A stretch of DNA of 64,000 nucleotides from Escherichia coli (GTDB lineage: Bacteria; Pseudomonadota; Gammaproteobacteria; Enterobacterales; Enterobacteriaceae). The notes under the pieces are model-generated. The model saw only the letters and a list, made by a program, of their open reading frames with translations. It made no database searches and had not been told where the DNA came from. Numbering within the stretch: the first letter of the stretch is position 1; every line of letters starts with the position of its first letter. The stretch lies in NCBI RefSeq assembly GCF_048403405.1, contig NZ_CP183129.1; one strand, given 5' to 3'. This document shows positions 25,512 to 48,689 of this stretch, in pieces. The translations under genes and the position numbers were made by a program.

Positions 25512-25546
25512 AAAGAGTGGGCGCAACTAATCACTTGAAAAGAATG

Positions 25547-25954: not shown

Positions 25955-25955
25955 A

Positions 25956-26025: not shown

Positions 26026-26034
26026 GGGGCTTTG

Positions 26035-26262
26035 ATGCTTAAAGTTGACGCAATTACTTTTTTTGGCAGCAAAACAAAGCTTGCCAATGCCGCAGGAGTG
26101 AGACTGGCAAGTGTTGCTGCTTGGGGGATACTGGTTCCTGAAGGTCGCGCGATGCGTCTACAGGAGGCATCTGGCGGGGAGCTTCAGTATGATCCCAAAG
26201 TTTATGACGAATATCGTAAGACGAAGCGGGCGGGGCGGTTGAACAATGAAAATCACTCCTGA
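26035..26262 (+). CDS. dicC: Cro-like small HTH regulator (DicC-like)
   Basis: About 76 aa, HTH KTKLANAAGVRLASVAAWG; good RBS (AGAGGGGGC) before the ATG. Confidence 0.7.
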   Translation: MLKVDAITFFGSKTKLANAAGVRLASVAAWGILVPEGRAMRLQEASGGELQYDPKVYDEYRKTKRAGRLNNENHS

Positions 26263-26767
26263 ACAGGCTCGTGAGGCTCTGGATGCCTGGATATGTCGAC
26301 CAGGAATGACACAGGAGCAGGCGACGATATTAATCACTGAAGCATTCTGGGCTTTGAAAGAGCGCCCGAACATCGATGTTCAGCGTGTCACATATGAAGG
26401 TGGCGCGGTTGATCAGCGAGCGCTTAGCGTTAATCGAGTGAAGATATTCGAACGCTGGAAGGCTATCGACACCAGGGATAAGCGTGAAAAGTTCACAGCG
26501 CTAGTGCCTGCAATTATGGAGGCTATCCGGATTAGTGATTTCAGGTTGTATCGTGAGATCAGTGATGGAAAAAGTATTACGTACATGATCGCCGGGTTAA
26601 ATAAAGAATATGGCGATGTGGTGGAATCCGGACTGCTTTTTGCAGATCCTGCCGTTGTAGATCGTGAAACTGACGAACTTATAGAAAAAGCAATTGCTTT
26701 CAAGCTTGCGTATCGACAGCAATACCAACAAAAAGCTGGATGGAATTATGAGTCTTCTTTTTGCTGA
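26246..26767 (+). CDS. hypothetical early protein (cII/YdaT-like position)
   Basis: 173-aa ORF between the cro-like and replication genes; no recognisable catalytic motif. Confidence 0.5.
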   Translation: MKITPEQAREALDAWICRPGMTQEQATILITEAFWALKERPNIDVQRVTYEGGAVDQRALSVNRVKIFERWKAIDTRDKREKFTALVPAIMEAIRISDFRLYREISDGKSITYMIAGLNKEYGDVVESGLLFADPAVVDRETDELIEKAIAFKLAYRQQYQQKAGWNYESSFC

Positions 26768-27713: not shown

Positions 27714-27753
27714 GTGTTGATTTCAGGTCATGAGATAATTTTAAGGGGGACTT

Positions 27754-28155
27754 GTGGCAAAAGTTTTTACACAAGAAGAGCGGGAAAAAATTAAAGGGCA
27801 GGTTGTTGAACTCGTACGCCGGAGTGGGCGTGAGACGTTACGGCAACTGGAAGTCAAGACAGGTGCGACAAGATATCTGATGAGCGTTCTCGCAAGAGAG
27901 CTGGTTGCCAGCGGCGATGTATACAACTCTGGTTACGGGTTATTCCCGTCTGAACAGGCGCGTAAGGACTGGCAAAATGCCCGTAAAAAGCTCTCAAGGG
28001 CAAAGCTGAAGAAACCATCTGCGGTTGATCCGGACCTTATCTGGTCATTACCTGACGGAGAAATACGTCGCTACGACAGGCGTCAGAACATAATCTGCCG
28101 CGAGTGCCGGAAGAGTGAAGTTATGCAGCGCATACTGGCATTTTATCAGGGATAA
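27754..28155 (+). CDS. hypothetical protein
   Basis: 133-aa ORF with RBS; basic, contains CRECRK; immediately upstream of the AT-rich island. Confidence 0.45.
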   Translation: MAKVFTQEEREKIKGQVVELVRRSGRETLRQLEVKTGATRYLMSVLARELVASGDVYNSGYGLFPSEQARKDWQNARKKLSRAKLKKPSAVDPDLIWSLPDGEIRRYDRRQNIICRECRKSEVMQRILAFYQG

Positions 28156-28636
28156 TGTTAGGTATTTTAGACGTTACTAGATTAAAAAGCATTAGTTCAG
28201 GAGTGAATTGACATTCTCATTTTTCATGGCACAGGGTAGATCTGGCGTGGTTGTCCGCTTTGTGCCAACAGCGGACGTTACTAACGAAACTGTGAGTTAA
28301 AAACGGGAGCTGGTCACCTCCATCCCGCGAAATGGAATTCAAAAATGCCCTCATGTACGGTACTTCTAGTCTGATGTGAGCATTTTCGTGGATTTTTTCG
28401 AGCCACTCCAACGAATGATTACATTCAGTTTCGGGCACTAAAACGTCATAAATCCGCAAGTTGAGGAGTAGCGATCAGCCAATTGGTTAAAAAACAGCTT
28501 TAATTCCCTTTTTCAAGCAGGCTCCTTGTCGCACGTCTGGTGCATCCAATTCATTTCAGTTACCCTGATGCCATACTGGCACGGACTAGCTCTCTTAATT
28601 GGCGCTGGTTTGTTAACCTTGTCCGCTGTCGGGTCT

Positions 28637-28667
28637 TTGTAAGTTGTAATTCCTAAACTAGCATAAT
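28637..28667 (+). promoter_or_regulatory. candidate sigma70 promoter for the RelA/SpoT-domain gene
   Basis: TTGTAA (28637-28642), 19-bp spacer, CATAAT (28662-28667), about 20 bp upstream of the ATG at 28689. Confidence 0.35.
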
Positions 28668-28688
28668 TTTATTATAAGGCCTCTTACT

Positions 28689-29714
28689 ATGCACATTTTA
28701 TCTGTTTCAAAAAAGGAAGTTGGAAGAGCTGGGGATAGATTAGTTTCTCAGTTTGGTACAGGTGAAAAATATAAAGAGGAAGATGTACAAATTCTTCATG
28801 AGTGGAGGATGTTGCATTTATATCCTTTAAGTAAAATACAATTTTATATGGAAAGAGAGGCTATTTCCTTAAACAAAAATGCGTTACTATCCTCTAGAAT
28901 TAAGAGGATGCCTTCCATTGTTACTAAGCTTTCTAGATTTCCTGATATGAAGTTAAATAAGATGCAGGATCTTGGTGGGTGCCGGGCTATTTTAAATAAT
29001 CTGGATCAAGTGTATGATTTAGTTAATAAAATAAAATCATCTAAATTCTCACATGAACTAGTTAGAATGGATGATTACATGATAGACGTGAAAGATTCTG
29101 GTTATAGAAGCTTTCATATGGTCTATTCATTCCAAAATAAAAAATTTCCATCTTTAAATGGGTTGCGCATTGAAATGCAAATAAGAACAGCTATTCAACA
29201 TAGCTGGGCTACAGCAGTTGAAATGGTTGGTTTGTTTCGAAAGGAATCATTGAAATCTGGTTTTGGTGATGCAAGATGGCTTAGGTTTTTTGAATTGGTA
29301 TCAGAGCTTTTTTATAAACTTGAGTATGAAAAAGAACCATCTGGGAGTTATATAAAAATATCAGAAGAATTAAGTTATTTATCCGTCGAGTTGAATGTTT
29401 TCGATATATTAGCTGCTTACAATGCCGTAGTTAGCCATATTGAGGGTAGCAAAAAATATGATAAAGGACTTTGCATAATTGTTGTTGATACCATAAAGCG
29501 GAATATAAATATAAAGAGCTTCGAAAATCACAATCATGCGAAGGCGGCAGAAGCTTATGTCGAGTCTGAAAAATACTGCGCGGAAAATAAAGGCTGTGAA
29601 GTGGCTATGGTTTCTGTTAGTTCAATTAGTGAATTAAAAAATGCATATCCTGCTTACTTTTTAGATACGAAAACTTTTTTAAATTATCTCAGTAGGTATG
29701 TTTTTATAAAATAA
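28689..29714 (+). CDS. RelA/SpoT-domain nucleotidyltransferase (small-alarmone-synthetase / toxSAS-like) with uncharacterised C-terminal domain
   Basis: 341 aa. All synthetase-fold motifs present in order: RIKRMPSIVTK, DLGGCRAIL, YRSFHMVY, EMQIRTAIQHSWATAVE. C-terminal ~150 aa unrecognised. The gene lies in a conspicuously AT-rich island. Confidence 0.8.
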   Translation: MHILSVSKKEVGRAGDRLVSQFGTGEKYKEEDVQILHEWRMLHLYPLSKIQFYMEREAISLNKNALLSSRIKRMPSIVTKLSRFPDMKLNKMQDLGGCRAILNNLDQVYDLVNKIKSSKFSHELVRMDDYMIDVKDSGYRSFHMVYSFQNKKFPSLNGLRIEMQIRTAIQHSWATAVEMVGLFRKESLKSGFGDARWLRFFELVSELFYKLEYEKEPSGSYIKISEELSYLSVELNVFDILAAYNAVVSHIEGSKKYDKGLCIIVVDTIKRNINIKSFENHNHAKAAEAYVESEKYCAENKGCEVAMVSVSSISELKNAYPAYFLDTKTFLNYLSRYVFIK

Positions 29715-30448
29715 AAAATGTTATCTGGAGTGGTCTGAATTCTACTAACTTAGTTTTTTCAGACCGCTTCTGACCACAATGGCCTGTGAGGTTCTGCTGC
29801 TAGTCAACATAAAATAACAAAGCCGGCAGGTGGTGGTTGTTGTAAAGTTATTCAATGACATTCATGGAGGCTTAAGCGAATTATTTGTCCCTGGTCGGTA
29901 TGGTGGCAACAGCTTGTTGCGAGAATTTGGCTAATTTGGACTGACTTCCGCTCCTTGCTCAAAGCGGACTAGAAGGTTAGCTTGTGTCGGACTTTGCGTA
30001 TTAAAAGAAGTGCTGGTGGTGACTAGTGGTTGAGCCCCATTTCCACAGAAAAAATCAGAGAAACTATACCCAATAGTTGTATTGAATCACTGACGAGACA
30101 GCCTCATATTCATCAGGACTGGTGTACGTCCAATACAGGAGGTTGTGGTGCTGGTTCTCAAATGTGCGCTGGCTATTACGGCTGTAATGGCGATTTATTG
30201 TCTTGCTATTGTTCTTATGGATCGCCTTTCTGACTGATTTCATATTGGCGAGGTAAAGGTAGTTAAGTAGAATGGCTGCGGGTGCTTGAGGCTATCTGCC
30301 TCGGGCATGAACACCAAAGGCAGATAGAGAAAAGCCCCAGTTAACATTACGCGTCCTGCAAGACGCTTAACATTAATCTGAGGCCAATTTCATGCTAGAC
30401 ACATGTAGGTTAGCCTCTTACGTGCCGGAAGGCAAGGAGAAGCAGGCT

Positions 30449-30604
30449 ATGAAGCAGCAAAAGGCGATGTTAATCGCCCTGATCGTCATCTGTTTAACCG
30501 TCATAGTGACGGCACTGGTAACGAGGAAAGACCTCTGCGAGGTACGAATCCGAACCGGCCAGACGGAGGTCGCTGTCTTCACAGCTTACGAACCTGAGGA
30601 GTAA
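30449..30604 (+). CDS. hokD: Hok/Gef-family membrane toxin (type I toxin)
   Basis: 51 aa, MKQQKAMLIALIVICLTVIVTALVTRKDLCEVRIRTGQTEVAVFTAYEPEE; embedded in a longer mok-like upstream ORF (30392..). Confidence 0.85.
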   Translation: MKQQKAMLIALIVICLTVIVTALVTRKDLCEVRIRTGQTEVAVFTAYEPEE

Positions 30605-30672
30605 GAGACCCGGCGAGGGAGAAATCCCTCGCCACCTCTGATGTGGCAGGCATCCTCAACGCACCCGCACTT

Positions 30673-30699
30673 AACCCGCTTCGGCGGGTTTTTGTTTTT
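30673..30699 (+). terminator. intrinsic terminator downstream of hok
   Basis: AACCCGCTTCGGCGGGTT hairpin followed by TTTTGTTTTT. Confidence 0.7.
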
Positions 30700-30820
30700 A
30701 TTTTCAACGCGTTTGAAGTTCTGGACGGTGCCGGAATAGAATCAAAAATACTTAAGTAGCGCGCAGGGATAAGAGGGATGGTCCCTTAAAGGGGAGAGCT
30801 AATTATCCGGAAGAATTCTG

Positions 30821-31072
30821 ATGATGAACATCGAAGAACTGCGTAAAATTTTTTGTGAAGATGGCCTCTATGCTGTGTGCGTTGAAAATGGAAATCTTGT
30901 TAGTCATTACCGCATTATGTGTTTGCGAAAGAATGGGGCTGCGTTAATTAATTTTGTGGATGGTCGAGTGACAGACGGATTTATCTTGCGCGAAGGTGAG
31001 TTTGTCACTTCATTACAGGCACTGAAAGAGATCGGAATAAAAGCAGGCTTTTCAGCTTTTGCAGAAGAATAA
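30821..31072 (+). CDS. hypothetical 83-aa protein (position and length of Qin rem)
   Basis: 83-aa ORF with RBS; between hok and the DUF968 gene, as rem is in Qin. Confidence 0.5.
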   Translation: MMNIEELRKIFCEDGLYAVCVENGNLVSHYRIMCLRKNGAALINFVDGRVTDGFILREGEFVTSLQALKEIGIKAGFSAFAEE

Positions 31073-31138
31073 ACTCATCTACAATCTTGCGCGGGGCTGA
31101 ACTCCCGCTGAGTAACACCGTGCCACCGGAGAAAACCG

Positions 31139-31417
31139 ATGGCACGCAACGTAAAATATTACAATTCTGATAATTCGCCCGTTCTTGCCTGCACGCACGG
31201 GCGGTATTCTCACGCATTCAAGTCTGAATGGTTCCAGCACCCTCCATGCACTGCAGAACAGGCCGAATGGCTGATTCATTCTTACCGCAGGCGCGGGTTC
31301 GAGGTTAAGAAAGCTCTCAGTCTCGACTATCGGCACTGGATAATCTCTGTCAGGCTGCCTTATTCCGAACGCCCACCACGTGCGTCCCGCACTTTCCAGC
31401 AACGGATCTGGAGGTAA
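31139..31417 (+). CDS. hypothetical protein
   Basis: 92-aa ORF with GGAG RBS; its stop abuts the GTG start of the next gene. Confidence 0.5.
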   Translation: MARNVKYYNSDNSPVLACTHGRYSHAFKSEWFQHPPCTAEQAEWLIHSYRRRGFEVKKALSLDYRHWIISVRLPYSERPPRASRTFQQRIWR

Positions 31418-31418
31418 C

Positions 31419-32468
31419 GTGCGGGTATTACTTAGACCTGTTCTGGTGCCTGAGCTTGGGCTGGTGGTCCTTAAGCCGGGCCGTGAATCCATACAGATAT
31501 TTCATAATCCTCGAGTGCTGGTGGAACCGGAACCAAAAAGCATGCGTAATCTGCCATCCGGAGTCGTTCCTGCCGTTCGCCAGCCGCTGGCGGAAGACAA
31601 AACATTGCTGCCGTTTTTTAGTAACGAACGGGTGATTCGTGCTGCTGGCGGCGTTGGCGCATTGTCTGACTGGCTATTACGTCATGTTACATCCTGCCAG
31701 TGGCCTAATGGCGATTACCATCACACTGAAACAGTCATTCACCGTTATGGTACCGGCGCAATGGTGTTGTGCTGGCACTGCGACAACCAACTGCGTGACC
31801 AGACATCGGAATCACTGGAGCTGCTTGCTCAACAAAATCTGACAGCATGGGTGATTGACGTCATCCGTCACGCAATAAGCGGTACGCAGGAGCGGGAATT
31901 ATCTTTGGCTGAATTATCCTGGTGGGCGGTCTGCAATCAGGTGGTGGATGCACTACCTGAGGCTGTATCGCGTCGTTCGCTGGGATTACCAGCGGAAAAA
32001 ATCTGCTCGGTGTACCGCGAAAGCGACATCGTACCGGGAGAGCAGACCGCCACCAGCATATTGAAACAACGCACAAAAAATCTTGCACCGTTGCCTTACG
32101 CCCACCAGCAACAAAAACCACCACAGGAAAAGACGGTGGTAAGCATCAACGTTGATCCAGAGTCTCCGGAATCTTTCATGAAGCTGCCTAAACGTCGCCG
32201 CTGGGTTAAGGAGAAATACACTCGTTGGGTTAAGACACAGCCGTGTGCTTGCTGCGGTATGCCAGCCGACGATCCGCATCATCTGATTGGTCACGGGCAG
32301 GGCGGAATGGGAACAAAAGCACATGATCTCTTTGTGTTGCCTTTGTGCAGAAAGCATCACAACGAGCTGCATACGGATACAGTGGCATTTGAAGAGAAGT
32401 ATGGCTCCCAACTGGAGCTGATATTTCGTTTTATCGATCGCGCGCTGGCAACTGGCGTACTGGCGTAA
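31419..32468 (+). CDS. DUF968-family protein with HNH-like motif (YdfU-like)
   Basis: 349 aa from a GTG start with GGAGG RBS; C-terminal CACCGMPADDPHHLIGHG...CRKHHNELH Zn/HNH-like motif; located just upstream of Q. Confidence 0.7.
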   Translation: MRVLLRPVLVPELGLVVLKPGRESIQIFHNPRVLVEPEPKSMRNLPSGVVPAVRQPLAEDKTLLPFFSNERVIRAAGGVGALSDWLLRHVTSCQWPNGDYHHTETVIHRYGTGAMVLCWHCDNQLRDQTSESLELLAQQNLTAWVIDVIRHAISGTQERELSLAELSWWAVCNQVVDALPEAVSRRSLGLPAEKICSVYRESDIVPGEQTATSILKQRTKNLAPLPYAHQQQKPPQEKTVVSINVDPESPESFMKLPKRRRWVKEKYTRWVKTQPCACCGMPADDPHHLIGHGQGGMGTKAHDLFVLPLCRKHHNELHTDTVAFEEKYGSQLELIFRFIDRALATGVLA

Positions 32469-32481
32469 GTGGAGAACGAGC

Positions 32482-33234
32482 ATGAACCTTGAAGCCTTAC
32501 CAAAATATTACTCCCCAAAATCTCTAAAATTGAGCGATGACGCTCCAGCGACAGGCACCGGTTGTTTAACAATTACGGATGTAATGGCAGCGCAGGGGAT
32601 GGTGCAGTCGAAAGCACCACTTGGGTTGGCCTTATTTCTGGCAAAAGTTGGTGTTCAGGACCCTCAGTTTGCGATTGAAGGCCTGCTAAATTACGCGATG
32701 GCACTGGATAACCCGACATTGAACAAATTGAGTGAAGAAAGCCGGTTACAGATTATTCCTTACCTCGTGAATTTTGCCTTTGCTGATTACTCCAGGTCTG
32801 CGGCAAGTAAGGCTCGCTGTGAGCATTGTTCAGGTACGGGATTTTATAATGTATTGCGCGAAGTGGTGAAACACTACAGACGCGGGGAATCTGTAATCAA
32901 GGAAGAATGGGTAAAGGAACTATGTCAGCATTGCCATGGTAAGGGCGAAGTCAGCACAGCGTGCAGAGGGTGTAAGGGTAAAGGGATTGTTCTGGATGAA
33001 AAAAGAACCCGGTTTCATGGCGTACCGGTATATAAGATTTGTGGGCGTTGTAATGGAAACCGGTTTAGTCGTTTACCGACCACGCTGGCACGACGTCATG
33101 TCCAGAAGCTGGTACCAGACCTGACCGATTATCAGTGGTATAAGGGGTATGCGGACGTCATTGATAAACTGGTAACAAAGTGCTGGCAGGAAGAAGCATA
33201 CGCGGAAGCGCAATTGAGGAAGGTGACGAGATAA
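32482..33234 (+). CDS. late-gene antitermination protein Q
   Basis: 250 aa; zinc-binding CxxC clusters ([34 protein letters not shown]) typical of Q antiterminators. Confidence 0.8.
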
Positions 33235-33341
33235 ATGATTTTTGCTGAAGATGGCGACATGATGTTTGCATTTTTCAAAAAACATGGATAAGATTTTCTC
33301 AACGATGGGCTTTGTGTATCCGACGTTTAGAAAAAAGTAGA

Positions 33342-33367
33342 AAACCCGCTTATAAGCGGGTTTTTGT
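33342..33367 (+). terminator. intrinsic terminator (tR'-like) about 110 bp downstream of Q
   Basis: AAACCCGCT-TATA-AGCGGGTTT hairpin plus T tract. Confidence 0.6.
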
Positions 33368-33404
33368 GCTTTAAATGGGGCAATAGAGATATTGAATCTC
33401 ATCC

Positions 33405-33589
33405 CGGGATAAACATTGGCAGTTGAAGGTCCACGCGAACCATTTATCCGGCAAAATTCCACGCGTAATCCTGTGGTAATTTCTTCTGCATCTCGAAGAT
33501 TGAGAGCTGAAACGTGAAGCTGGGCATCGATACGCCATCGGATGGGAATATAAGACCTTTGCTGCTTTTGTAGTCAAAGTTTTTGACAA
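33405..33589 (-). pseudogene. degraded cold-shock protein gene (cspF-like remnant)
   Basis: Minus-strand frame encodes ...[42 protein letters not shown] (Csp C-terminal half) but the N-terminus is in another frame and no stop follows the expected end. Confidence 0.5.
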
Positions 33590-33909
33590 TTCCTGTCATT
33601 TTAGGGGACAGAAAAACTCCTTAATACTGATAACCTGGTGCACCATACACACGTTCCTGGAGAAAACTACTTTTTTGATAGGGTTGAAGGTGGCTGGATG
33701 TCTAAAATAAACATTGCTTCATATGTTCAACTATGAGTTAATGACTGCGTCGGTTTGAAGAACAGACGATATACGAAGTAGTTTACTAAAGCAGTTCTCA
33801 TTTCAGGTGTTATTCACTTATTCCTTCTTTGAGTCTCTCCAATTAAGTACGAAGTCGTTTCTGTTATGCAAACCATTTATGCCGAAAGGCTCAAGTTAAG
33901 GAATGTAGA

Positions 33910-34125
33910 ATGTCAAATAAAATGACTGGTTTAGTAAAATGGTTTAACGCTGATAAAGGTTTCGGCTTTATTTCTCCTGTTGATGGTAGTAAAGATGTGT
34001 TTGTGCATTTTTCTGCGATTCAGAATGATAATTATCGAACCTTATTTGAAGGTCAAAAGGTTACCTTCTCTATAGAGAGTGGTGCTAAAGGTCCTGCAGC
34101 AGCAAATGTCATCATTACTGATTAA
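33910..34125 (+). CDS. cspB: cold-shock protein (CspA family)
   Basis: 71 aa, [38 protein letters not shown]... with RNP1/RNP2 motifs; long 5' leader typical of csp genes. Confidence 0.8.
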
Positions 34126-34406
34126 AATTCATCGCTCGTCTGTATACGATAACGAAGAAGGCTGATGCCTGAGTAGAGATACGGACAGAGTAGTGAATAT
34201 TGGATCTCTTTAATAAAAAGTAAGGAGGTCCAATACATGAAACAATGGCCAGCATATTTGGCAAAATCTTAATCAGGAAAAGTATGCTAACCATTGTGGT
34301 GAAGTGCAGGTTTGCTGCATGAATAGTTTCACAGCAGAAGCTAACTGCTGGCATCGCAAAACAAAGTGCGTAAGTGGATGACTCCCACAAAAAGCACCAC
34401 AATCTC

Positions 34407-34430
34407 AAACCCGCTCAGGCGGGTTTTTTA
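34407..34430 (+). terminator. intrinsic terminator downstream of the csp gene
   Basis: AAACCCGC-TCAG-GCGGGTTT followed by TTTTTATT. Confidence 0.7.
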
Positions 34431-34488
34431 TTATCTGCTTTAAATATATTATTAAAATATAAAAAATACTTGTTACTAATAAAATCAA

Positions 34489-34659
34489 TCAGGCTACAGC
34501 TTTAAGATTTGTCTGGAATACTTTGTTGCAATGAGGGCAGATCAAAAGGGCACCTTTTTGTACTCTTGAAAAACTGTGTTCTGACTCTTGGGTGCAGTTT
34601 GGGCAGGAACATTTAACGAGATAATTACGGCGTGATTTTGAGTCTTTACGTTCTGACAT
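34489..34659 (-). CDS. small C4 zinc-ribbon protein
   Basis: 56 aa from MSERKDSKSRRNYLVKCSCPNCTQESEHSFSRVQKGALLICPHCNKVFQTNLKAVA; strong RBS (AGGAAAAG) before this Met. Confidence 0.5.
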   Translation of the reverse strand: MSERKDSKSRRNYLVKCSCPNCTQESEHSFSRVQKGALLICPHCNKVFQTNLKAVA

Positions 34660-34878
34660 AGGCTTTTCCTGTATAAATGGCCGTATACAGTACACTAAAT
34701 ATGAAAACATTTCTCGTATTATTATTTTATATGTGACTTTCTTTCAAAATAATTACCCACATTTTTAATGTGTATGTTTTTTTAGCGCCGTTGAGAACAA
34801 CGTGTGCTGTCAAAACTACCCCGTAGACTCCGATCTTTTCAAACATATTGCACCATCCGTGTACATCGGGGTGAGGAT

Positions 34879-36999: not shown

Positions 37000-37362
37000 A
37001 TTAATATTAAATCGGATTATTTTTAGCGCTGAATGTGAAATTTAAATAAAAAGGACTCTTCCATGAGTCAAAATCCTTGAAATCTTAAGGGTAAGATAAA
37101 AGGTCATTAGACAGAATGACACGTTTTATTAATAAATAAAGCTATTGTTTCATTCGTGTGTTTTTCTTTACAAAAGTAATCCTTGCTATGGTTGGTTAAT
37201 CATGCGTTAATGGTGTTCTGGTTTGTTACAAAATTATCTGAAGCAGTCATTGTTATAATTTTATTATTTGTACCTCTTGAGATTTCCTTGTTGGTTTTTC
37301 TCTCTGATATTTTTTTTCGGACCATTCTGCCCAAGGGCTAACTTCTTCAAAAGGTAATAATG

Positions 37363-37575
37363 ATGTCTAACAAAATGACTGGTTTAGTGAAATGGTTTAA
37401 CCCTGAAAAAGGTTTTGGTTTCATCACGCCGAAAGATGGTAGCAAAGATGTGTTTGTCCATTTCTCAGCTATTCAGAGCAACGATTTCAAAACGTTAACT
37501 GAGAATCAGGAAGTCGAATTTGGTATTGAGAACGGACCTAAAGGCCCCGCGGCTGTTCATGTTGTGGCACTTTGA
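37363..37575 (+). CDS. cold-shock protein (CspA family; cspI-like position after the lysis cassette)
   Basis: [45 protein letters not shown]... Confidence 0.8.
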
Positions 37576-37779
37576 GGTAGATAATATTACAAACCATATT
37601 CACTTTAGATGCCCGTGTTGCCATGGTTCTCAGTATAGAACATCATCTTTTGATGTTTCTGACAGGAATCCTTTCGGGGCAAAATGTATCTTTTGTAAAT
37701 CAATGATGATTACATTTGATAATATTTCACAATACTTAAATGTTAGCCGTCTATCGTTAGATTTAAGAAAGTGAAAATG

Positions 37780-37804
37780 AAGGCTCCTTCGGGAGCTTTT
37801 TTTC
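37780..37804 (+). terminator. intrinsic terminator
   Basis: AAGGCTCC-TTCG-GGAGCTT followed by TTTTTTT. Confidence 0.65.
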
Positions 37805-37846
37805 TTAGTGTCTAGTCGATGGATACTCACATAATACGGTAACATT

Positions 37847-38077
37847 ATGAAAAAAATAATAGTTTTTTTTAACTCTGAACCAGCAATGGTAGTGCCAGTG
37901 ATGACCGGAGTTAACACCATCATGCGTGAATATCCAAATGGCGAAACAACACACCTCACTGTAATGGCTGCAGGGTTTCCATCTCTGACCGGAGATCATA
38001 AAATCATTTATGTAGCAGCGGATCGACATGTAACTTCAGAAGAAATTCTGGAAGCAGCAATGAGACTCTTGAATTGA
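37847..38077 (+). CDS. hypothetical protein (moron region)
   Basis: 76-aa ORF in an AT-rich region between csp and gnsB. Confidence 0.45.
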   Translation: MKKIIVFFNSEPAMVVPVMTGVNTIMREYPNGETTHLTVMAAGFPSLTGDHKIIYVAADRHVTSEEILEAAMRLLN

Positions 38078-38249
38078 TTTGATTCTAATGCATTGATAAT
38101 AAATGATAATCATCTTTATCTGTTTGTGTGAAATTTAGACCGTCGTATGTTGATTATTGCGATGTTTCATCTTATCTTTTATACGTTTGCTCCATATAAT
38201 TGACACTACTGTGTACCAGGAAAGTCATAACAGACTAAAAGAGGAAATG

Positions 38250-38423
38250 ATGAACATTGAAGAGTTAAAAACAAAAACAGAAGCAGATATTTCTGAATAT
38301 ATAACAAAAAAAATCATTGAGCTTAAGAAAAAGACCGGGAAAGAAGTTACCAGTATCCAGTTTACTGCACGGGAAAAAATGACTGGTCTTGAAAGCTATG
38401 ATATCAAGATTGATTTAATCTAG
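38250..38423 (+). CDS. gnsB: GnsA/GnsB-family protein
   Basis: 57 aa, MNIEELKTKTEADISEYITKKIIELKKKTGKEVTSIQFTAREKMTGLESYDIKIDLI; RBS AAAGAGGAAA. Confidence 0.7.
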   Translation: MNIEELKTKTEADISEYITKKIIELKKKTGKEVTSIQFTAREKMTGLESYDIKIDLI

Positions 38424-38716
38424 TCTGTTTAGTATTAGCATCAATTTCTCATCAGATGCTATTCAACAATACAAATTACCCATAAACCTCGTTTTTACGG
38501 GGTTTTGTTATATTTAAACATTACCGAATAGGTATAAATCTCGATTGTCGATGGTATTGGTTGTGTGACAATACCTAGTCTTTCCGGTATGCCTGATGAG
38601 AATACAAACGACAGATTATGTAAGGGAAACGCGCTGAATCTTTAACTCTTTCATGCTGAGTGATTTGACGTTATATTTTTAGCCGTAAGTGAAGAGCAAA
38701 CGCATGGAGCGACAAA

Positions 38717-38923
38717 ATGCATAAAGATCAATACACTGATGCCCCCTCCCAGGAGCAGGTTCGTGTAAAAACTATGCTTAATAGCACCATTTCGATGGGT
38801 TACCCGGATGTTGTAATTGCATGTATAGAACATCAAGTGTCTCTGGAAGCATTCAGGGCAATTGAGGCCGCGTTAGTAAAGCACGATAAGAATACGAAGG
38901 ATTATTCCCTGGTGGTTGACTGA
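38717..38923 (+). CDS. hypothetical protein
   Basis: 68-aa ORF; weak support. Confidence 0.3.
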
Positions 38924-39284
38924 TCACCATAACTGCTAACCATTCTGACCATTTCACAAGTGACAGAGTCAATATCGTATTCTGTCACTGTCAGGCTAAT
39001 ACAGCAATGCAATTCAACTACAGCAATGCCTCGTATTTAGGTGAATTTACAATATCGTCCAGTTCGGATGCCGGCTGCATTTCTGAAGATAAGGCATTTC
39101 GGTTCTCGTATTTTCCCCTCATGCTCGTCAGTCCTGCGCGTAGTAAGAAACAGGACACTCACACTAATTTGTGTGGGCATGCTGTGATGTCCTTCTGAAT
39201 TATCCCCATGCCATTATGTAAAGCTCTGTTAAAGATGCTCGTCACGGTTGTCAGGCTGTCGGGTCCTCCCAGTGGGGGGCCCTG

Positions 39285-39310
39285 CCACGGGGCGGGAGCG
39301 TCGCGGAAAA
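39285..39310. other. candidate cos site (cosN-like) upstream of the terminase genes
   Basis: ACGGGGCGGGAGCGTCGCGG closely resembles the lambda cosN region ACGGGGCGGCGACCTCGCGG as I recall it; about 180 bp upstream of the small terminase gene. Confidence 0.55.
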
Positions 39311-39485
39311 AGGCTAGTTTTTGCATTTCCATGGCGGCGGCAGCATGTTTGGTAATTTATTGATAATTAAAAGTTATTTCCCTTTTCACCTGTACAATAT
39401 TTTTTTCTTCCTGTCATTAGACCAGTTTGCAATTAATTGAAATATATAAATAAACCTGATTTTCACCTGCCAGATGGAGTTGCTT

Positions 39486-40013
39486 ATGTCAAATGTGAGC
39501 GGGATCGGTGATGCTTATTACTGGAGTGTTTTTAAAATCGCCGAGGCCTTTGGGCTTCACCGGGACACAGTAAAAAAACGGCTCCTCGCGGCCAACACTC
39601 CTGTGGCTGCGACTGTCAGGGGGAACCCCGTTTACGCCCTGCAGCATGTCGGGCCCGCCCTGTTTAGTGTGAAGCATGAGGCAGCAGACTCTGTTCATGA
39701 TCCATCCCGTATGGAGCCGAAAGAGAGAAAGGACTGGTACCAGTCTGAAAATGAAAGGATCAAGCTGGAAAAGGAGCAGCGAAAACTCATCCCAGTTGAT
39801 GAAGTAGTCATCGTCTATTCGTCCATGAGAAAGGCTGTCGTCCAGGTTCTGGAGACAATTCCGGATGTTCTTGAACGCGATTGCGCTCTGACTCCTCAGG
39901 CCGTCGGCGTTGTACAGCAGGCCATTGATGACCTGCGATACACTCTTCAGGAAAAATCCTACGAGGCTTGTGCTGCTGAATTAATTCCTGATGAGGAAGG
40001 AGAGAGTCTCTAG
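39486..40013 (+). CDS. terminase small subunit (Nu1-like)
   Basis: N-terminal winged-HTH SVFKIAEAFGLHRDTVKKRL; immediately upstream of the large terminase. Confidence 0.75.
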   Translation: MSNVSGIGDAYYWSVFKIAEAFGLHRDTVKKRLLAANTPVAATVRGNPVYALQHVGPALFSVKHEAADSVHDPSRMEPKERKDWYQSENERIKLEKEQRKLIPVDEVVIVYSSMRKAVVQVLETIPDVLERDCALTPQAVGVVQQAIDDLRYTLQEKSYEACAAELIPDEEGESL

Positions 40014-40021
40014 GAGGAATA

Positions 40022-42121
40022 ATGGGTTTTTCATCAGCCCGAAATTTGGGAAGGGACATATCGGCAGGATTTTCCCCACCACGTCGCATGCCGATTTCGG
40101 AGGCTGTTAAAAAATTCATGCGTGTTCCCAAGGGGGCTGGTAACTCGGTGCCATGGGATCCTGAACTGACACCCTACATCATTGAGCCCATGAACTGCCT
40201 GGCATCGCGTGAATACGATGCGGTGATTTTTGTTGGTCCTGCGCGAACAGGGAAGACCATTGGTCTGATCGATGGATGGATTGTCTATACCATCGTTTGC
40301 GATCCTTCGGACATGCTCGTTGTGCAGATGACCGAAGATAAGGCCCGCGAGCATTCTAAAAAGCGCCTCGACAGAACGTTCAGAAGCAGTGCGGCGGTAA
40401 AGAAAAGAATGAGTCCACGTCGTAACGACAATAATGTCCATGATAAGACGTTCAGGGATGGCTCGTTCCTTAAAATTGGTTGGCCCTCGGTCAACATTAT
40501 GTCGTCGTCGGATTACCGGTTTGTCGCCTTAACCGATTACGACCGTTTTCCGGAGAATATCGACAGCGAGGGTGATGGTTTCTCCCTGGCCTCAAAACGT
40601 ACCACCACATTTATGTCCGCCGGGATGACTCTGGTGGAGAGCTCGCCGGGACGTGACATCTGCGACAGCAAATGGCGACGTAAGTCGCCTCATGAAGCGC
40701 CACCGACGACTGGTATTCTTTCCCTTTACAATCGTGGTGACCGCCGCCGCTGGTACTGGCCATGTCCGCACTGCGGTGAATATTTTCAGCCAGCTATGGA
40801 TGCCATGACCGGCTACCGTAATGAACCGGATCCCTTTAAAGCCAGTGAGGCGGCGTATCTACTTTGCCCGCACTGCAGCGGCATTATCACTGCGGAGAAA
40901 AAGCGTGAGCTCAATAGTGCAGGAGTCTGGTTGCGTGAAGGTCAGGTCATTGATCGTAACGGCAACGTTTCCGGTGAACCGCGCCGCTCCCGTATCGCCA
41001 GTTTCTGGATGGAAGGGCCAGCTGCTGCGTATCAGACCTGGGCGCAACTGGTTTACAAATTACTGACTGCAGAACAGGAGTATGAAGCGACAGGAAGCGA
41101 AGAAACACTCAGGGCGGTTATCAACACCGACTGGGGATTGCCTTATCTTCCTCGTGCCAGCATGGAGCAACGAAAAAGTGAACTGCTTGAGCAGCGGGCA
41201 GAGCCAGTTCCTTCCTGCAGTGTGCCGGATGGCGTTAATTTCCTTGTGGCGACAGTGGATGTGCAGGCGGGACGTCATCGCCGTTTTGTGGTTCAGGTAA
41301 CTGGCTATGGCAGTCGTGGCGAACGCTGGATTATTGATCGTTACAATATCACGCAGTCATTGCGCAGTGACTGCGACGGGGAGAGCCAGCGAATTGATCC
41401 GGCCAGCTATCCGGAAGACTGGGATGTCCTGCTGACGGATGTTTTTCATAAAAGCTGGCCGCTGGCCTCCGATCCTTCTCAACAAATGCGACTGATGGCA
41501 ATGGCGGTGGACTCCGGCGGTGAAGACGGGGTCACTGATAATGCCTATAAATTCTGGCGTCGTTGCCGTCGTGATGGCCTTGGTAAACGTATTTACCTGT
41601 TTAAGGGCGACAGCATCCGGCGCGCAAAACTGATCACCCGTACATTCCCTGATAACACCGGACGAACGGGCCGACGGGCGCAGGCCGCAGGTGATGTGCC
41701 GCTCTGGCTTCTTCAGACGGATGCACTGAAAGACCGGGTGAATAACGCGTTATGGCGTGACTCGCCAGGTCCCGGCTATGTGCATTTCCCTGACTGGCTG
41801 GGGAGCTGGTTTTACGACGAACTGACGTATGAAGAGCGGAGCAGTGACGGGAAATGGAGTAAGCCGGGTCGCGGTGCCAACGAAGCTTTTGACCTGATGG
41901 TGTATGCCGAGGCTCTGGTCATTCTGCATGGATACGAAAAGATCCGCTGGCCGGATGCACCGGAGTGGGCGAGCCGGGAAACCTGGCTGGAGTGTGTCCC
42001 GGACAGTACCGAACCGTCACCCTCACCGGAACCGGTATCCACGCCTGTTAAAAAACAAAAACGGAAGAAAACAGTAACTGACGATGTTAACCCCTGGCTG
42101 ACTTCCGGAGGATGGTTATGA
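40022..42121 (+). CDS. terminase large subunit (GpA-like)
   Basis: 699 aa; Walker A VIFVGPARTGKT; AGGAGG RBS. Confidence 0.88.
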   Translation: MGFSSARNLGRDISAGFSPPRRMPISEAVKKFMRVPKGAGNSVPWDPELTPYIIEPMNCLASREYDAVIFVGPARTGKTIGLIDGWIVYTIVCDPSDMLVVQMTEDKAREHSKKRLDRTFRSSAAVKKRMSPRRNDNNVHDKTFRDGSFLKIGWPSVNIMSSSDYRFVALTDYDRFPENIDSEGDGFSLASKRTTTFMSAGMTLVESSPGRDICDSKWRRKSPHEAPPTTGILSLYNRGDRRRWYWPCPHCGEYFQPAMDAMTGYRNEPDPFKASEAAYLLCPHCSGIITAEKKRELNSAGVWLREGQVIDRNGNVSGEPRRSRIASFWMEGPAAAYQTWAQLVYKLLTAEQEYEATGSEETLRAVINTDWGLPYLPRASMEQRKSELLEQRAEPVPSCSVPDGVNFLVATVDVQAGRHRRFVVQVTGYGSRGERWIIDRYNITQSLRSDCDGESQRIDPASYPEDWDVLLTDVFHKSWPLASDPSQQMRLMAMAVDSGGEDGVTDNAYKFWRRCRRDGLGKRIYLFKGDSIRRAKLITRTFPDNTGRTGRRAQAAGDVPLWLLQTDALKDRVNNALWRDSPGPGYVHFPDWLGSWFYDELTYEERSSDGKWSKPGRGANEAFDLMVYAEALVILHGYEKIRWPDAPEWASRETWLECVPDSTEPSPSPEPVSTPVKKQKRKKTVTDDVNPWLTSGGWL

Positions 42122-42330
42122 ACCAGAATGATATCGAAGCCATGATTCAGCGTTATACGGAAGCTGAAATGGCGGTGCTGGACGGAAAATCCGTCACCTT
42201 TAATGGTCAGCAGATGACCATGGAAAACTTATCTGAGATCCGGCAGGGACGGCAGGAGTGGGAGCGCCGCCTTGCGGCTCTGATTACACGACGACGGGGG
42301 CATCCCGGGTACCGGCTGGCGAGGTTCTGA
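42118..42330 (+). CDS. head-tail joining protein (gpW-like)
   Basis: About 70 aa between terminase and portal; overlaps both neighbours. Confidence 0.7.
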   Translation: MNQNDIEAMIQRYTEAEMAVLDGKSVTFNGQQMTMENLSEIRQGRQEWERRLAALITRRRGHPGYRLARF

Positions 42331-43838
42331 TGGCAATTCTTGATGATGTGATTGGCGTTTTTTCACCAGGATGGAAAGCGGCAAGGCTGCGTTCCCGGGC
42401 GGTGATCCAGGCTTATGAGGCCGTAAAAACGACGCGGACACACAAAGCCCGGCGGGAAAACCGAACTGCCGACCAGTTAAGCCTCTACGGGGCCGTGTCG
42501 TTACGTGAGCAGGCCCGTTACCTTGATAACAACCACGATCTGGTCATTGGTGTATTTGACAAGCTGGAAGAACGGGTGGTGGGGAAAAACGGGATTATTG
42601 TCGAGCCACATCCGGTATTACGCAATGGGGCCATTGCCCGTGATCTGGCAGCGGAGATACGCACCCGATGGAGTGAATGGTCTGTCAGTCCGGAAGTTAC
42701 CGGGCAGTTTACCCGTCCGATGCTGGAACGTCTGATGCTGCGTACCTGGCTGCGCGATGGTGAGGTGTTTGCCCAGATGGTTTCCGGGCGCATAAACAGC
42801 CTGACGCCTTCTGCCGGTGTTCATTTCTGGCTGGAGGCACTCGAGCCAGACTTTATTCCCATGACCAGTGATGAGAGCAACAGGCTGAATCAGGGCGTGT
42901 TTGTTGATGACTGGGGGCGTCCCGAAAAATATCTGGTGTATAAAAGTCGTCCTGTATCCGGACGGCAGATGGAAACCAAAGAAGTGGATGCAGAGCGAAT
43001 GCTGCATCTTAAATTTGTTCGCCGTCTGCACCAGATGCGCGGGACGTCTTTATTGTCCGGTGTGCTGATCCGCCTCAGTGCCCTGAAAGAATATGAAGAT
43101 TCTGAGCTGACTGCAGCAAGGATCGCTGCTGCTCTGGGGATGTACATCCGCAAAGGCGACGGACAGAGCTATGAAACGGATGGTAATGACAGCAAGGAGA
43201 ATGAACGCGAGCTTACCATTCAGCCAGGCATTATTTACGACGATCTGAAACCCGGCGAAGAAATCGGAATGGTGAAGTCGGATCGCCCCAATCCTAACCT
43301 TGAAACTTTTCGTAATGGTCAGTTGCGTGCCGTGGCGGCGGGCAGTCGTCTGAGTTTTTCCAGTACAGCGCGCAACTATAACGGCACTTACAGCGCCCAG
43401 CGTCAGGAGCTGGTTGAATCCACTGATGGCTACCTGATCCTGCAGGACTGGTTTATTGGTGCCGTCACCCGCCCGATGTATCGTGCCTGGCTGAAACAGG
43501 CTGTGGCATCCGGTGTTATCAGGCTACCCCGCGATCTTGACCGTTCTTCACTGTATACCGCGGTGTATTCCGGACCGGTGATGCCGTGGATTGACCCTGT
43601 TAAGGAGGCTGAGGCCTGGAAAATTCAGATTCGTGGTGGAGCGGCGACAGAATCAGACTGGGTACGTGCAGGTGGTCGTAATCCGGATGATGTCAAACGT
43701 CGGCGCAAGGCAGAAATTGATGAAAACCGCAAGCTGGATCTGGTATTTGATACCGATCCGGCCAGTGATAAAGGAGGCAGCAGTGCCGCAACGAAACGAC
43801 AGGAGCCGCAGCACACCGACGACCAGTCCGAAGAATAA
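42330..43838 (+). CDS. portal protein
   Basis: About 500 aa starting MAILDDVIGVFSPGWKAARLRSRAV; lambda-B-like position and size. Confidence 0.85.
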   Translation: MAILDDVIGVFSPGWKAARLRSRAVIQAYEAVKTTRTHKARRENRTADQLSLYGAVSLREQARYLDNNHDLVIGVFDKLEERVVGKNGIIVEPHPVLRNGAIARDLAAEIRTRWSEWSVSPEVTGQFTRPMLERLMLRTWLRDGEVFAQMVSGRINSLTPSAGVHFWLEALEPDFIPMTSDESNRLNQGVFVDDWGRPEKYLVYKSRPVSGRQMETKEVDAERMLHLKFVRRLHQMRGTSLLSGVLIRLSALKEYEDSELTAARIAAALGMYIRKGDGQSYETDGNDSKENERELTIQPGIIYDDLKPGEEIGMVKSDRPNPNLETFRNGQLRAVAAGSRLSFSSTARNYNGTYSAQRQELVESTDGYLILQDWFIGAVTRPMYRAWLKQAVASGVIRLPRDLDRSSLYTAVYSGPVMPWIDPVKEAEAWKIQIRGGAATESDWVRAGGRNPDDVKRRRKAEIDENRKLDLVFDTDPASDKGGSSAATKRQEPQHTDDQSEE

Positions 43839-43851
43839 TTCCTGGTTCAGG

Positions 43852-45810
43852 ATGCAGGCTGGTCACCAGAGTGACGCGGATATTTATATTTATGACGAGA
43901 TTGGTTTCTGGGGTGTTACAGCGAAGCAGTTTATCAGTGATCTGAATGCACTGGGCGATATCACCCACATTAATCTCCATATCAATTCACCGGGTGGCGA
44001 TGTCTTTGAAGGCATCGCCATTTTTAATGCGCTGAAAACACATGGTGCGTCCATTACCGTTTATGTCGACGGTGTGGCGGCGTCAATGGCGTCGGTCATT
44101 GCGATGGTGGGAAACCCGGTCATTATGCCGGAAAACACCTTCATGATGATTCATAAACCATTTGGCTTTACGGGCGGTGATGCGGAGGACATGCGCACCT
44201 ATGCCGACCTGCTCGATAAGGTTGAGGCGGTTCTGTTACCCGCTTATGCACAGAAAACCGGGAAAACCACCGATGAAATTGCTGCCATGCTGGCGGATGA
44301 GACCTGGATGTCCGGTGCCGAATGTCTGGCACATGGATTTGCTGATCAGGTGACGCCAGCCGTTAAGGCAATGGCATGTATTCAGTCAAAACGTACAGAG
44401 GAATTTAAAAAGATGCCGGAATCCATTCGAAACATGATTACTCCGCCACGCAACAGTGCTCCACGCGTACAGGATGATGAACCTGCAGCCTCCCGGACGC
44501 CAGTGCAGGCAGCAGCACCCGTGGTGGATGAAAACAGTATCCGTGCGCAGGTACTGGCAGAGCAAAAAGCGCGTGTAAACGGTATTAATGATCTGTTTGC
44601 CATGTTTGGCGGGCGTTATCAGACGCTGCAGGCTCAGTGTCTTGCCGATCCTGAGTGTTCGCTGGAGCAGGCCCGCGAAAAGCTGTTGAACGAGATGGGG
44701 CGCGAGTCCACGCCATCCAATAAAAATACACCGGCTCATATTTATGCTGGTAACGGTAATTTTGTGGGGGACGGGATCCGCCAGGCGCTGATGGCGCGTG
44801 CCGGATTTGAAAAAACCGAACGTGATAATGTCTACAACGGGATGACCCTGCGTGAATATGCCCGTATGTCACTGACTGAACGGGGTATTGGGGTTTCCGG
44901 TTATAACCCGATGCAGATGGTCGGTGCGGCGTTCACCCACAGTACGTCTGACTTCGGTAATATTCTGCTGGATGTTGCGAACAAAGCCATTCTGCAGGGC
45001 TGGGAAGATGCTCCTGAAACCTATGAACAATGGACGCGGAAAGGTCAGTTGTCTGATTTTAAAATTGCCCATCGTGTGGGTATGGGGGGCTTCAGTGCTC
45101 TGCGTCAGGTGCGTGAAGGGGCGGAATATAAATACGTCACCACCGGAGATAAACAGGCCACTATTGCACTGGCGACCTATGGCGAGCTGTTCAGTATCAC
45201 CCGTCAGGCCATTATCAATGATGATCTGAATATGCTGACCGATGTCCCGATGAAACTGGGCCGTGCGGCGAAATCCACTATTGCCGATCTGGTTTATGCC
45301 ATTCTGACGTCTAACCCGAAAATCTCCACAGATAATGTAAGTCTGTTCGATAAAGCGAAACATGCAAACGTACTGGAGAGCGCTGCAATGGACGTGGCAT
45401 CGCTGGATAAAGCCCGCCAGTTGATGCGCGTTCAGAAAGAGGGGGAGCGTCATCTGAATATTCGTCCTGCGTTCGTACTGGTACCGACGGCGATGGAGTC
45501 TGTTGCTAACCAGGTCATTCGCTCCTCAAGTGTCAAGGGGGCTGACATTAACGCCGGTATTATTAACCCGGTGAAAGATTTTGCGACCGTTATTGCAGAG
45601 CCTCGTCTTGATGATAACAGCCAGACCACCTTCTACCTGGCTGCGTCAAAAGGCTCCGATACGATTGAAGTGGCTTATCTCAACGGTGTGGATACGCCAT
45701 ATATTGATCAGATGGAGGGCTTCAGTGTGGATGGCGTGACAACGAAAGTGCGTATTGACGCCGGTGTCGCGCCAGTTGATCACCGCGGTCTGGTGAAATG
45801 TACGGCGTAA
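43852..45810 (+). CDS. fused prohead protease (ClpP/S49-like) - scaffold - major capsid protein
   Basis: N-terminal ClpP-like domain (YIYDEIGFWGVT...INSPGGDVFEGIAIFNAL...ASMASVIAMVG), a middle Ala/Gln-rich region and a C-terminal capsid-like domain in one 652-aa frame. Confidence 0.8.
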   Translation: MQAGHQSDADIYIYDEIGFWGVTAKQFISDLNALGDITHINLHINSPGGDVFEGIAIFNALKTHGASITVYVDGVAASMASVIAMVGNPVIMPENTFMMIHKPFGFTGGDAEDMRTYADLLDKVEAVLLPAYAQKTGKTTDEIAAMLADETWMSGAECLAHGFADQVTPAVKAMACIQSKRTEEFKKMPESIRNMITPPRNSAPRVQDDEPAASRTPVQAAAPVVDENSIRAQVLAEQKARVNGINDLFAMFGGRYQTLQAQCLADPECSLEQAREKLLNEMGRESTPSNKNTPAHIYAGNGNFVGDGIRQALMARAGFEKTERDNVYNGMTLREYARMSLTERGIGVSGYNPMQMVGAAFTHSTSDFGNILLDVANKAILQGWEDAPETYEQWTRKGQLSDFKIAHRVGMGGFSALRQVREGAEYKYVTTGDKQATIALATYGELFSITRQAIINDDLNMLTDVPMKLGRAAKSTIADLVYAILTSNPKISTDNVSLFDKAKHANVLESAAMDVASLDKARQLMRVQKEGERHLNIRPAFVLVPTAMESVANQVIRSSSVKGADINAGIINPVKDFATVIAEPRLDDNSQTTFYLAASKGSDTIEVAYLNGVDTPYIDQMEGFSVDGVTTKVRIDAGVAPVDHRGLVKCTA

Positions 45811-48299: not shown

Positions 48300-48689
48300 A
48301 TGATGTTTCTGAAACAGGACACGTTTAATTATGAAAAACAGTCCGTGGTGCTCAGTGAGCTGTCCGGGCTGCAGAGAATTGAATATCTGACGTTTGTTCA
48401 GCAGCGAACGGCAAAGTTTGATGCCGTGGAGGGAGAACTGCCGGAGGCTGAACGACAGATTGCTTTTCTGCGGATGGGGATGGATATCAATGCCTGGCTG
48501 GTTTCCCGCTCACTGTGGAATGCGGATCAGTCTAAGGATGTAGAGACGCTTTGCGCATCCGTTATTACAACATGGTCGTATGATGCCCTGGGTGCGGGGG
48601 CGGAGATGGTTCTGTCGCTGAGCGGTATGGGGGCCATTGATAATGCCGTGGATGATGAGCATGAGGCGCTGACGCCGGAAAAGTCCTGA
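48300..48689 (+). CDS. tail assembly chaperone (gpG-like)
   Basis: About 130 aa from MMFLKQDTFNYEKQSVVLSELSGLQRIEYL. Confidence 0.85.
   Translation: MMFLKQDTFNYEKQSVVLSELSGLQRIEYLTFVQQRTAKFDAVEGELPEAERQIAFLRMGMDINAWLVSRSLWNADQSKDVETLCASVITTWSYDALGAGAEMVLSLSGMGAIDNAVDDEHEALTPEKS

Follow-up and report, generated by a model that had tools for sequence, protein, structure and literature searches.

A probable lambda-like cohesive-end site upstream of a DUF1441-type small terminase gene in an Escherichia coli prophage at the Qin position

In lambda-like phages the 7-bp cosQ sequence is highly conserved (PMC4669245). The nick-flanking CG dinucleotides of cosN are conserved as well, while base pairs 7 to 12 of cosN vary naturally and can be mutated without loss of function (PMC4669245). 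Natural cosN variation across this group has been surveyed by Vahanian et al. in 2017, as cited in PMC9026076 and PMC12315714. Gifsy-1 is listed among the lambda-like phages (PMC4669245), and the R3 site of lambda itself is placed at bp 50–65 (PMC9026076). For phages of the mEp213/LLS type, a 2025 paper gives the cos as 'putative', on the basis of inference (PMC12315714). Work by Casjens that is cited in the same paper relates the type of virion end to the type of large terminase (PMC12315714). Tritos, a close relative of the prophage described here, corresponds to prophage 3 of E. coli LF82. It undergoes spontaneous induction, its particles are those of a siphovirus and it has been plaque-purified; the paper that describes it does not discuss cos (PMC9928086).

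Analysis of the window, the whole 64-kb stretch of E. coli DNA considered here, suggests that the region at 39285–39310 is the cohesive-end site (cos) of a lambdoid prophage located next to rspB, at the Qin position. We give this reading a probability of roughly 0.88. An earlier note on this DNA, made from the sequence alone, had also taken the region for the packaging site, and the left half of cosN, its CG flanks, cosQ, the gpA family of the large terminase (TerL), an IHF consensus and the termini of the cdtI and Tritos records all agree with it. The cosN-like 20-mer, ACGGGGCGGGAGCGTCGCGG, is present as a single copy on the plus strand at 39287–39306. It lies inside the stretch flagged by the earlier note, whose coordinates for it (39288–39307) were off by one. 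The core of the proposed site consists of four elements.

39261–39267, plus strand: cosQ-like heptamer GGGTCCT, packaging-termination signal, identical to the lambda cosQ heptamer (lambda 48473–48479).
39288–39303, plus strand: cosN, 16 bp, CG / GGGCGGGAGCGT / CG, with the CG flanks and bases 1–6 as in lambda.
39290–39301, plus strand: predicted 12-nt 5' cohesive end GGGCGGGAGCGT, from homology and the boundaries of deposited records.
39302–39328, plus strand: conserved block CGCGGAAAAAGGCTAGTTTTTGCATTT on the right side of the nick, sitting where the I2 segment does in lambda.

The core is followed by terminase genes and by a head module.

39486–40013, plus strand: terS, small terminase subunit, 175 aa (Pfam DUF1441, PF07278, E 2e-44; phrog_141, E 4e-65).
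40022–42121, plus strand: terL, large terminase subunit of the gpA family, 699 aa (full-model matches to GpA_ATPase, E 7.5e-81, and GpA_nuclease, E 3e-86; phrog_15).
42112–42330, plus strand: gpW-like adaptor (PHROG; PGAP annotation of the Ecol_316 region, 99.5% identical).
42330–43838, plus strand: portal (PHROG; PGAP annotation of the Ecol_316 region).
43591–45810, plus strand: ORF of a ClpP-protease/major-capsid fusion (PHROG; the PGAP homologue starts at 43783).

Translation of terS probably starts at ATG 39486, and the in-frame ATG at 39474 is less likely. A GGAG at 39477–39480 precedes ATG 39486, which is also the start used by the Tritos annotation and by PGAP on the identical Ecol_316 sequence. 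The distance of about 180 bp to the small terminase gene, as first estimated, is borne out at 184 bp to ATG 39474 and 196 bp to the better-supported ATG 39486. This gene had been described as Nu1-like, which is right as regards remote homology and function and wrong as regards family membership. DUF1441 was the sole Pfam match of TerS and Phage_Nu1 was not matched; BLASTP of TerS against lambda Nu1 detected no similarity (E 4.6), and a search for the TerS sequence in the PDB gave no match. However, hhalign of 12 DUF1441 TerS sequences against four Nu1-type sequences yields a probability of 88.7% (E 2.6e-6, 143 columns), with the N-terminal helix-turn-helix regions aligned (IAEAFGLHRDTVKKRL with LADIFGASIRTIQNWQ). 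Cross-matches in PHROG are reciprocal, the TerS of the window hitting phrog_57, the family of lambda Nu1, at 1e-9 and lambda Nu1 hitting phrog_141 at 6e-8. TerL itself is 24% identical to lambda gpA over about 600 residues (E 7e-22). The head module (42112–45810) is of the Gifsy-2/cdtI type, with the same genes cross-referenced in the Gifsy-2 and cdtI records, and the Gifsy-2/cdtI-type head and tail module downstream of the terminase genes is complete.

Comparison with the Ecol_316 prophage places these genes in a larger element. Positions 2256–21655 of the window are 99% identical to the ynfM...rspB region together with int and xis of Ecol_316, and positions 34851–58051 are 99.5% identical to the late region of its prophage. 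A stretch of 271 bp is 100% identical to Ecol_316, but the two are not colinear throughout, as the early/immunity region (approximately 25400–34800) is mosaic, matching Ecol_316 in patches only, at 89–95% identity. The int gene is found at approximately 19579–20859, xis is present, and the prophage adjoins rspB. Because of these matches at rspB, int, xis and the late region, we regard the element as a lambdoid prophage at the Qin site with full lysis, head and tail genes. Small accessory genes of the moron type occupy positions 37360–38923 between Rz and cos, namely cspI (37360–37575), a ymcF/ynfQ-like gene, ynfN, gnsB and a ybcW-like ORF (38717–38923). In Tritos, cspI and ynfN are expressed well above the prophage background in the lysogen (PMC9928086).

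The integrity of this prophage has a bearing on whether its cos is still in use. Compared with Ecol_316, the tail-tip gene gpJ (54411–57850) carries a 1-bp deletion in a run of five C residues at approximately 57470, which splits it into ORFs 54411–57632 and 57569–57850. The deletion is either a real frameshift truncating the receptor-binding end or a sequencing error in the homopolymer. If it is real, this copy of the prophage may not yield infectious particles because of it, with cos cleavage unaffected. The cos could be an intact relic in a defective prophage, left uncut unless a related helper phage supplies terminase. The split of gpJ with respect to the 99.5% identical Ecol_316 prophage, the mosaic early region and the insertion at the Qin locus all point in this direction. 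The K-12 prophage at the Qin locus is cryptic. However, terS, terL, the portal, the capsid and all the tail genes except J are full-length, and int and xis are both present; the difference in J falls within a homopolymer and could be a sequencing error, and a defect in J would not in any case block cos cleavage or packaging. Tritos, moreover, is inducible and plaque-forming (PMC9928086). We consider a relic cos rather unlikely.

Evidence for the identity of the site comes from comparison with lambda, for which the right and left ends of J02459 were joined and set beside the window. The lambda cosN 20-mer, ACGGGGCGGCGACCTCGCGG, and ACGGGGCGGGAGCGTCGCGG share 16 of their 20 positions. Within the predicted cohesive end, 8 of the 12 positions of GGGCGGGAGCGT are identical to lambda GGGCGGCGACCT: positions 1–6 are the same, and positions 7, 8, 9 and 11 differ. 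Lambda and the window also share the ACG preceding the top-strand nick and the CGCGG following the bottom-strand one. The CG dinucleotides flanking both predicted nicks are conserved and stand 12 bp apart (aCG / GGGCGGGAGCGT / CGcgg). Two-fold symmetry covers 8 of the 16 bp of cosN in the window compared with 10 of 16 in lambda. Positions 1–6 of the cohesive end and the CG nick flanks are identical in the window, lambda, phi80, N15 and Gifsy-1. In the same alignment N15 differs from lambda at positions 9 and 12 and Gifsy-1 at positions 8, 9 and 11; these are the differences stated by Feiss et al. (PMC4669245), which confirms the register of our alignment. The cosN of the window fits the rule given in that paper exactly, all four of its differences being within positions 7–11. 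The cosQ heptamer ends 22 nt before the top-strand nick in the window and 23 nt before it in lambda, and it is kept in cdtI, Tritos, mEp213, mEp460, PhiR40_1, phi80, N15 and Gifsy-1. The comparison with the lambda and phi80 cos regions, which the earlier note had named as a check, hence shows cosQ, the CG flanks and positions 1–6 to be shared.

Based on the analogy with lambda, the top strand is predicted to be nicked at 39289/39290 and the bottom strand at 39301/39302. Homology and the boundaries of deposited records suggest a 12-nt 5' overhang for this prophage. The block at 39302–39328 is common to mEp460 and PhiR40_1 and is looser in mEp213, VT1-Sakai and Gifsy-2. By analogy with lambda I2 (PMC4669245), it may have a role in termination and nicking.

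Deposited phage genomes place physical or assumed ends at this same position. Megablast of 38950–39500 against 50,697 phage records gave matches in 12 records. The first base of the cdtI record (AB285204 / NC_009514) corresponds to window position 39290. In the linear Tritos record (OV696610), the last base corresponds to 39289 (...CCACG) and the first base to 39290. Both records open with GGGCGGGAGCGTCGCGGAAAAAGG and close with ...CCTGCCACG. The termini of the two records thus coincide with the predicted top-strand nick, their boundaries having been either mapped or set by analogy with lambda. A cos feature is not annotated in record bases 1–3000 or the last 1000 bases of either of them.

Other collections were also inspected for ends. 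The left-end 26-mer has exact matches in at least 120 IMG/VR contigs, and none starts at the site among the 80 matches listed; these matches are uninformative on physical ends because most of the contigs appear to be prophage predictions. The virion-derived record of mEp460_4F5 (L007/L008, LR595868) is broken at a point 5 nt left of the predicted nick, and 3 nt are missing from its cosN; it has GGGCGGGAGCGCGG where mEp460 has GGGCGGGAGCGGCGCGG. This difference is possibly an assembly artefact at physical ends, and we set the record aside as evidence on ends, its reading as artefact or as real end being ambiguous. A 43,337-bp separate replicon record bearing this cos and terS was also found (NZ_CP174001.1, E. 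coli SZQ1; H60, 617–831). Its similarity to the window begins 4 nt before the nick, and it may represent an excised or circularised phage genome that was assembled separately.

A second alternative is that the site is a cos whose nicks lie off the lambda-equivalent positions, with an overhang that is not GGGCGGGAGCGT and that has another length or is shifted by a few bases. Such a shift might be expected from a TerL just 24% identical to lambda gpA, the related cores of VT1-Sakai (GGGCGGGCGGGCGCGG) and Gifsy-2 (GGTGGCTTCGGGCTCGCGG) are without a clean 12-nt register, and the ends in this subgroup have been called inferred (PMC12315714). However, the CG...CG flanks are exactly 12 bp apart, like those at the mapped ends of lambda, phi80 and N15, and the top-strand position equivalent to that of lambda is exactly where the cdtI and Tritos records are cut. 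Relatives also vary at two positions only: where the TerS is the same, most loci carry GGGCGGGAGCGT as their 12-mer, and the variants GGGCGGCAGCGG, GGGCGGGAGCGG and GGGCGGCAGCGT differ from it at positions 7 and 12. Displaced nicks are accordingly very improbable, and the lambda-equivalent positions are preferred.

The resemblance to the lambda cohesive-end region, as claimed from the start, is well above what composition alone would give. The 20-mer at 39287–39306 is the sole match to ACGGGGCGGCGACCTCGCGG at up to five mismatches on both strands of the 64 kb, and simulating the window 60 times with a first-order Markov model yielded no match to the lambda 20-mer at four mismatches or fewer. 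The composite pattern GGGTCCT-N15-27-CGGGGCGG-N6-CG has one occurrence in the window, at cos. The GC content is 0.65 at 39240–39349 and 0.27 at 39350–39473, compared with 0.49 for the whole window, in line with the GC-rich stretch flanked by AT-rich DNA described in the earlier note. That note had also called the GC-rich stretch structured, and this part does not hold. Modelled as single-stranded DNA, 39240–39350 folds no better than its shuffles (z = -0.50; 60 of 200 shuffles equal or better), and a structural role for the stretch was rejected for this reason. Two short ORFs run across cosQ and cosN, one on the plus strand (39208–39363, 51 aa) and the other on the minus strand (39159–39332, 57 aa). 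Some phage records, HannyBb for example, have 'hypothetical proteins' annotated across the equivalent stretch. The two ORFs are probably spurious calls over a non-coding packaging site.

The site is widespread. At least 80% of 39230–39500 is present in 881 of 5,426 complete E. coli genomes (approximately 16%), and part of the region in 2,121. A core of approximately 64 bp, made of cosQ, cosN and the I2-like block, is found at about 80–85% identity in mEp213, mEp043, VT1-Sakai, several Stx2 phages, CP-1639 and a Klebsiella phage, and the cosB part diverges among the phages that share it. One IMG/VR locus (L140, IMGVR_UViG_2541047735_000008) has two direct 80-bp copies of the core, at 6205–6284 and 9524–9603, which are 93% identical and 3,319 bp apart. 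Between the copies are a protease-capsid fusion ORF and a tail-assembly fragment; a primase and an SSB-like gene precede the pair, and a DUF1441-type terS follows it. The arrangement could represent tandem prophage remnants, or a cos-bearing satellite beside a prophage. A chance GC-rich resemblance in a phage that packages by the headful (pac) mode, for which nothing speaks except the small size of the motif, carries next to no weight, since no simulation came this close, the cosQ-spacer-cosN composite is unique in the window, about 64 bp are kept across many lambdoid phages while their flanks diverge, and TerL belongs to the gpA family and not to a headful-type terminase; together, the gpA-family TerL and the conserved cosQ-cosN core effectively refute headful packaging.

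To the right of the core, the AT-rich DNA leading to terS contains candidate elements of cosB, in agreement with the suggestion that it could hold cosB and IHF sites.

39339–39354, unstranded: equivalent of lambda R3 (cos bp 50–65), GCAGCATGTTTGGTAA, an uncertain, degenerate candidate TerS site.
39353–39365, minus strand: exact IHF consensus TATCAATAAATTA (WATCAANNNNTTR), cos bp 64–76, candidate analogue of lambda I1.
39383–39392, plus strand: TTTTCACCTG repeat A, candidate TerS-binding (R-like) site, cos bp 94–103.
39430–39442, minus strand: second IHF-like element, CAATTAATTGAAA on the plus strand, one mismatch to the consensus.
39460–39469, plus strand: TTTTCACCTG repeat B, candidate TerS-binding site adjoining the start of terS, cos bp 171–180.

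The exact IHF consensus has seven matches in the 64 kb, one of which is the match at 39353–39365. The I1 site of lambda, at bp 79–91, has the same orientation but one mismatch to the consensus. Repeats A and B form an exact 10-mer direct repeat, 77 bp apart, which was found by a custom k-mer scan; the repeat finder with its default logic reported no direct repeats. The spacing from IHF-like element to repeat is 30 bp in both cases, from 39353–39365 to repeat A and from 39430–39442 to repeat B. We propose 39353–39365, 39430–39442 and the TTTTCACCTG repeats as candidate IHF and TerS sites, with the R3 equivalent uncertain.

Related loci help to judge these candidates. We collected 71 IMG/VR loci that encode relatives of the TerS of the window, and aligned 14 diverse upstream regions (alignment A1). 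In A1, cosQ, the nick flanks and CGCGGAAAA.GGCT..TTTTTGCATTT are conserved while the surrounding bases vary, and the CGCGGAAAAAGGCTAGTTTTTGCATTT block is nearly invariant even with relatives whose TerS is at 42–57% identity. Conservation at this level of TerS identity extends to the TCACCTG cores and to the consensus positions of the two IHF-like elements. At the exact IHF site, the consensus positions (TAA....TTGAT) are conserved and the N positions vary, and at 39430–39442 the TGA core is invariant. Most distinct relatives have repeat B at -23 relative to the start of terS. Over 43 distinct loci, the density of TCACCT within 185 bp upstream of terS is approximately 29 times that of the flanks, a figure that is indicative only because these loci are related and non-independent.

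The position of the R3 equivalent is less clear. An inverted TCACCT at cos bp 50–65 in the window is a weak match, which we leave as uncertain, and one is present in L081–L083. In this clade there are four TCACCT copies, two inverted followed by two direct, with one of the inverted copies at approximately cos bp 57; L081 and L083 carry GCAGCAGGTGA, the reverse complement of the TCACCT core, at the R3-equivalent stretch. Our model of cosB is tentative because 39339–39354 matches the repeat core poorly. Separately, in VT1-Sakai the inverted repeats TCATCATCATC and GATGATGAT flank an IHF-like site, which suggests a different cosB specificity inside the same TerS family.

It is possible, though somewhat doubtful at present, that DUF1441-type small terminases recognise a cosB distinct in both architecture and specificity. 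It would be composed of two tandem modules 77 bp apart, each with an IHF or IHF-like site, 30 bp and TTTTCACCTG, with the R3 equivalent weak or absent. It would confer a packaging specificity unlike that of lambda, 21 or N15, and the cosQ-cosN core ahead of it would have remained lambda-like while TerL diverged to 24% identity. We found no dissection of such a cosB in the searchable literature, where a full-text search for 'DUF1441' returned unrelated phage papers only.

The elements described above can be combined into a scheme for packaging, in which we infer, by analogy with lambda, where exactly the nicks fall, how long the overhang is, that IHF binds and which repeats TerS recognises. After induction, the DUF1441-type small terminase would bind repeats in the AT-rich cosB, at approximately 39339–39470, and IHF would bend the DNA at 39353–39365. 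This assembly of TerS and IHF would position the gpA-family TerL on cosN, where it would nick the top strand at 39289/39290 and the bottom strand at 39301/39302. The product would be virion DNA with the 12-nt 5' single-stranded end GGGCGGGAGCGT. Packaging would run rightward via terS and terL and stop at the next cos in the concatemer, with the final cut directed by cosQ (39261–39267), cosN and the conserved block to the right.

The observation is correct yet unremarkable, and it is already known in the sense that the same sequence stands at the termini of two public phage genomes; a full-text search of the literature for GGGCGGGAGCGT returned unrelated eukaryotic papers only. For a very common family of E. 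coli prophages, the site fixes where packaging begins, which way it runs (rightward into terS and terL) and where the ends of the virion genome are likely to be. This is of use when phage genomes are to be re-oriented, or when cos-dependent transduction or satellite hijacking is to be predicted; beyond annotation it has little importance.

In comparison with the described systems, the order and scale of elements in the window are those of lambda cos (cosQ-cosN-I2-R3-I1-R2-R1, with the start of Nu1 at bp 191). The two share the cosQ heptamer, the left half of a CG-flanked 12-bp cosN and a gpA-family TerL encoded downstream. The IHF site has the same orientation in both, at bp 79–91 in lambda and bp 64–76 in the window, and the start of terS is at bp 191 in lambda and bp 197 in the window. 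However, the two have no sequence relationship in the I2 region or in their R sequences (CGTTTCC in lambda, TCACCT in the window), and R2 is inverted in lambda whereas the two clear repeats of the window are both direct. The TerS of lambda belongs to Phage_Nu1 and that of the window to DUF1441, the TerL proteins are 24% identical, and the distance from cosQ to the nick is 23 nt in lambda and 22 nt in the window.

The cohesive end of Gifsy-1, GGGCGGCAGCGT, differs from that of the window at position 7 only, and cosQ is present. The terS, terL and head genes of Gifsy-1, however, are of the lambda/21 type and its I2 is of the lambda type, in contrast to the Gifsy-2/cdtI-type module of the window. 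As for Gifsy-2 itself, its core (L018, 17990–18050), CACGGGTGGCTTCGGGCTCGCGG, is without GGGTCCT and has no clean 12-nt register, and the VT1-Sakai core (L011, approximately 1230–1330), ACGGGGCGGGCGGGCGCGG, likewise has no clean 12-nt register. The putative cos of mEp213 and LLS (GGGCGGCGCGCT), phages with Gifsy-2-type heads, is of the same core sub-type as the window, GGGTCCTCCCGG...CCTGCCACG / 12 nt / CGCGG.AA..GGCTAGTTTTT. These phages and the prophage of the window also have in common a head type with fused protease and capsid and an only distantly lambda-like TerL, but the right half of the 12-mer differs and their cosB is of the GTCATCATCATC type. cdtI and Tritos share with the window GGGCGGGAGCGT, cosQ, the I2-like block, the IHF site and the TTTTCACCTG repeats, together with terS (DUF1441), terL and the head module. 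They differ from it by a few substitutions, and in cdtI also by the DNA upstream of cosQ; identity to the window over the 191 bp of the left end is 97.4% for cdtI and 99.5% for Tritos.
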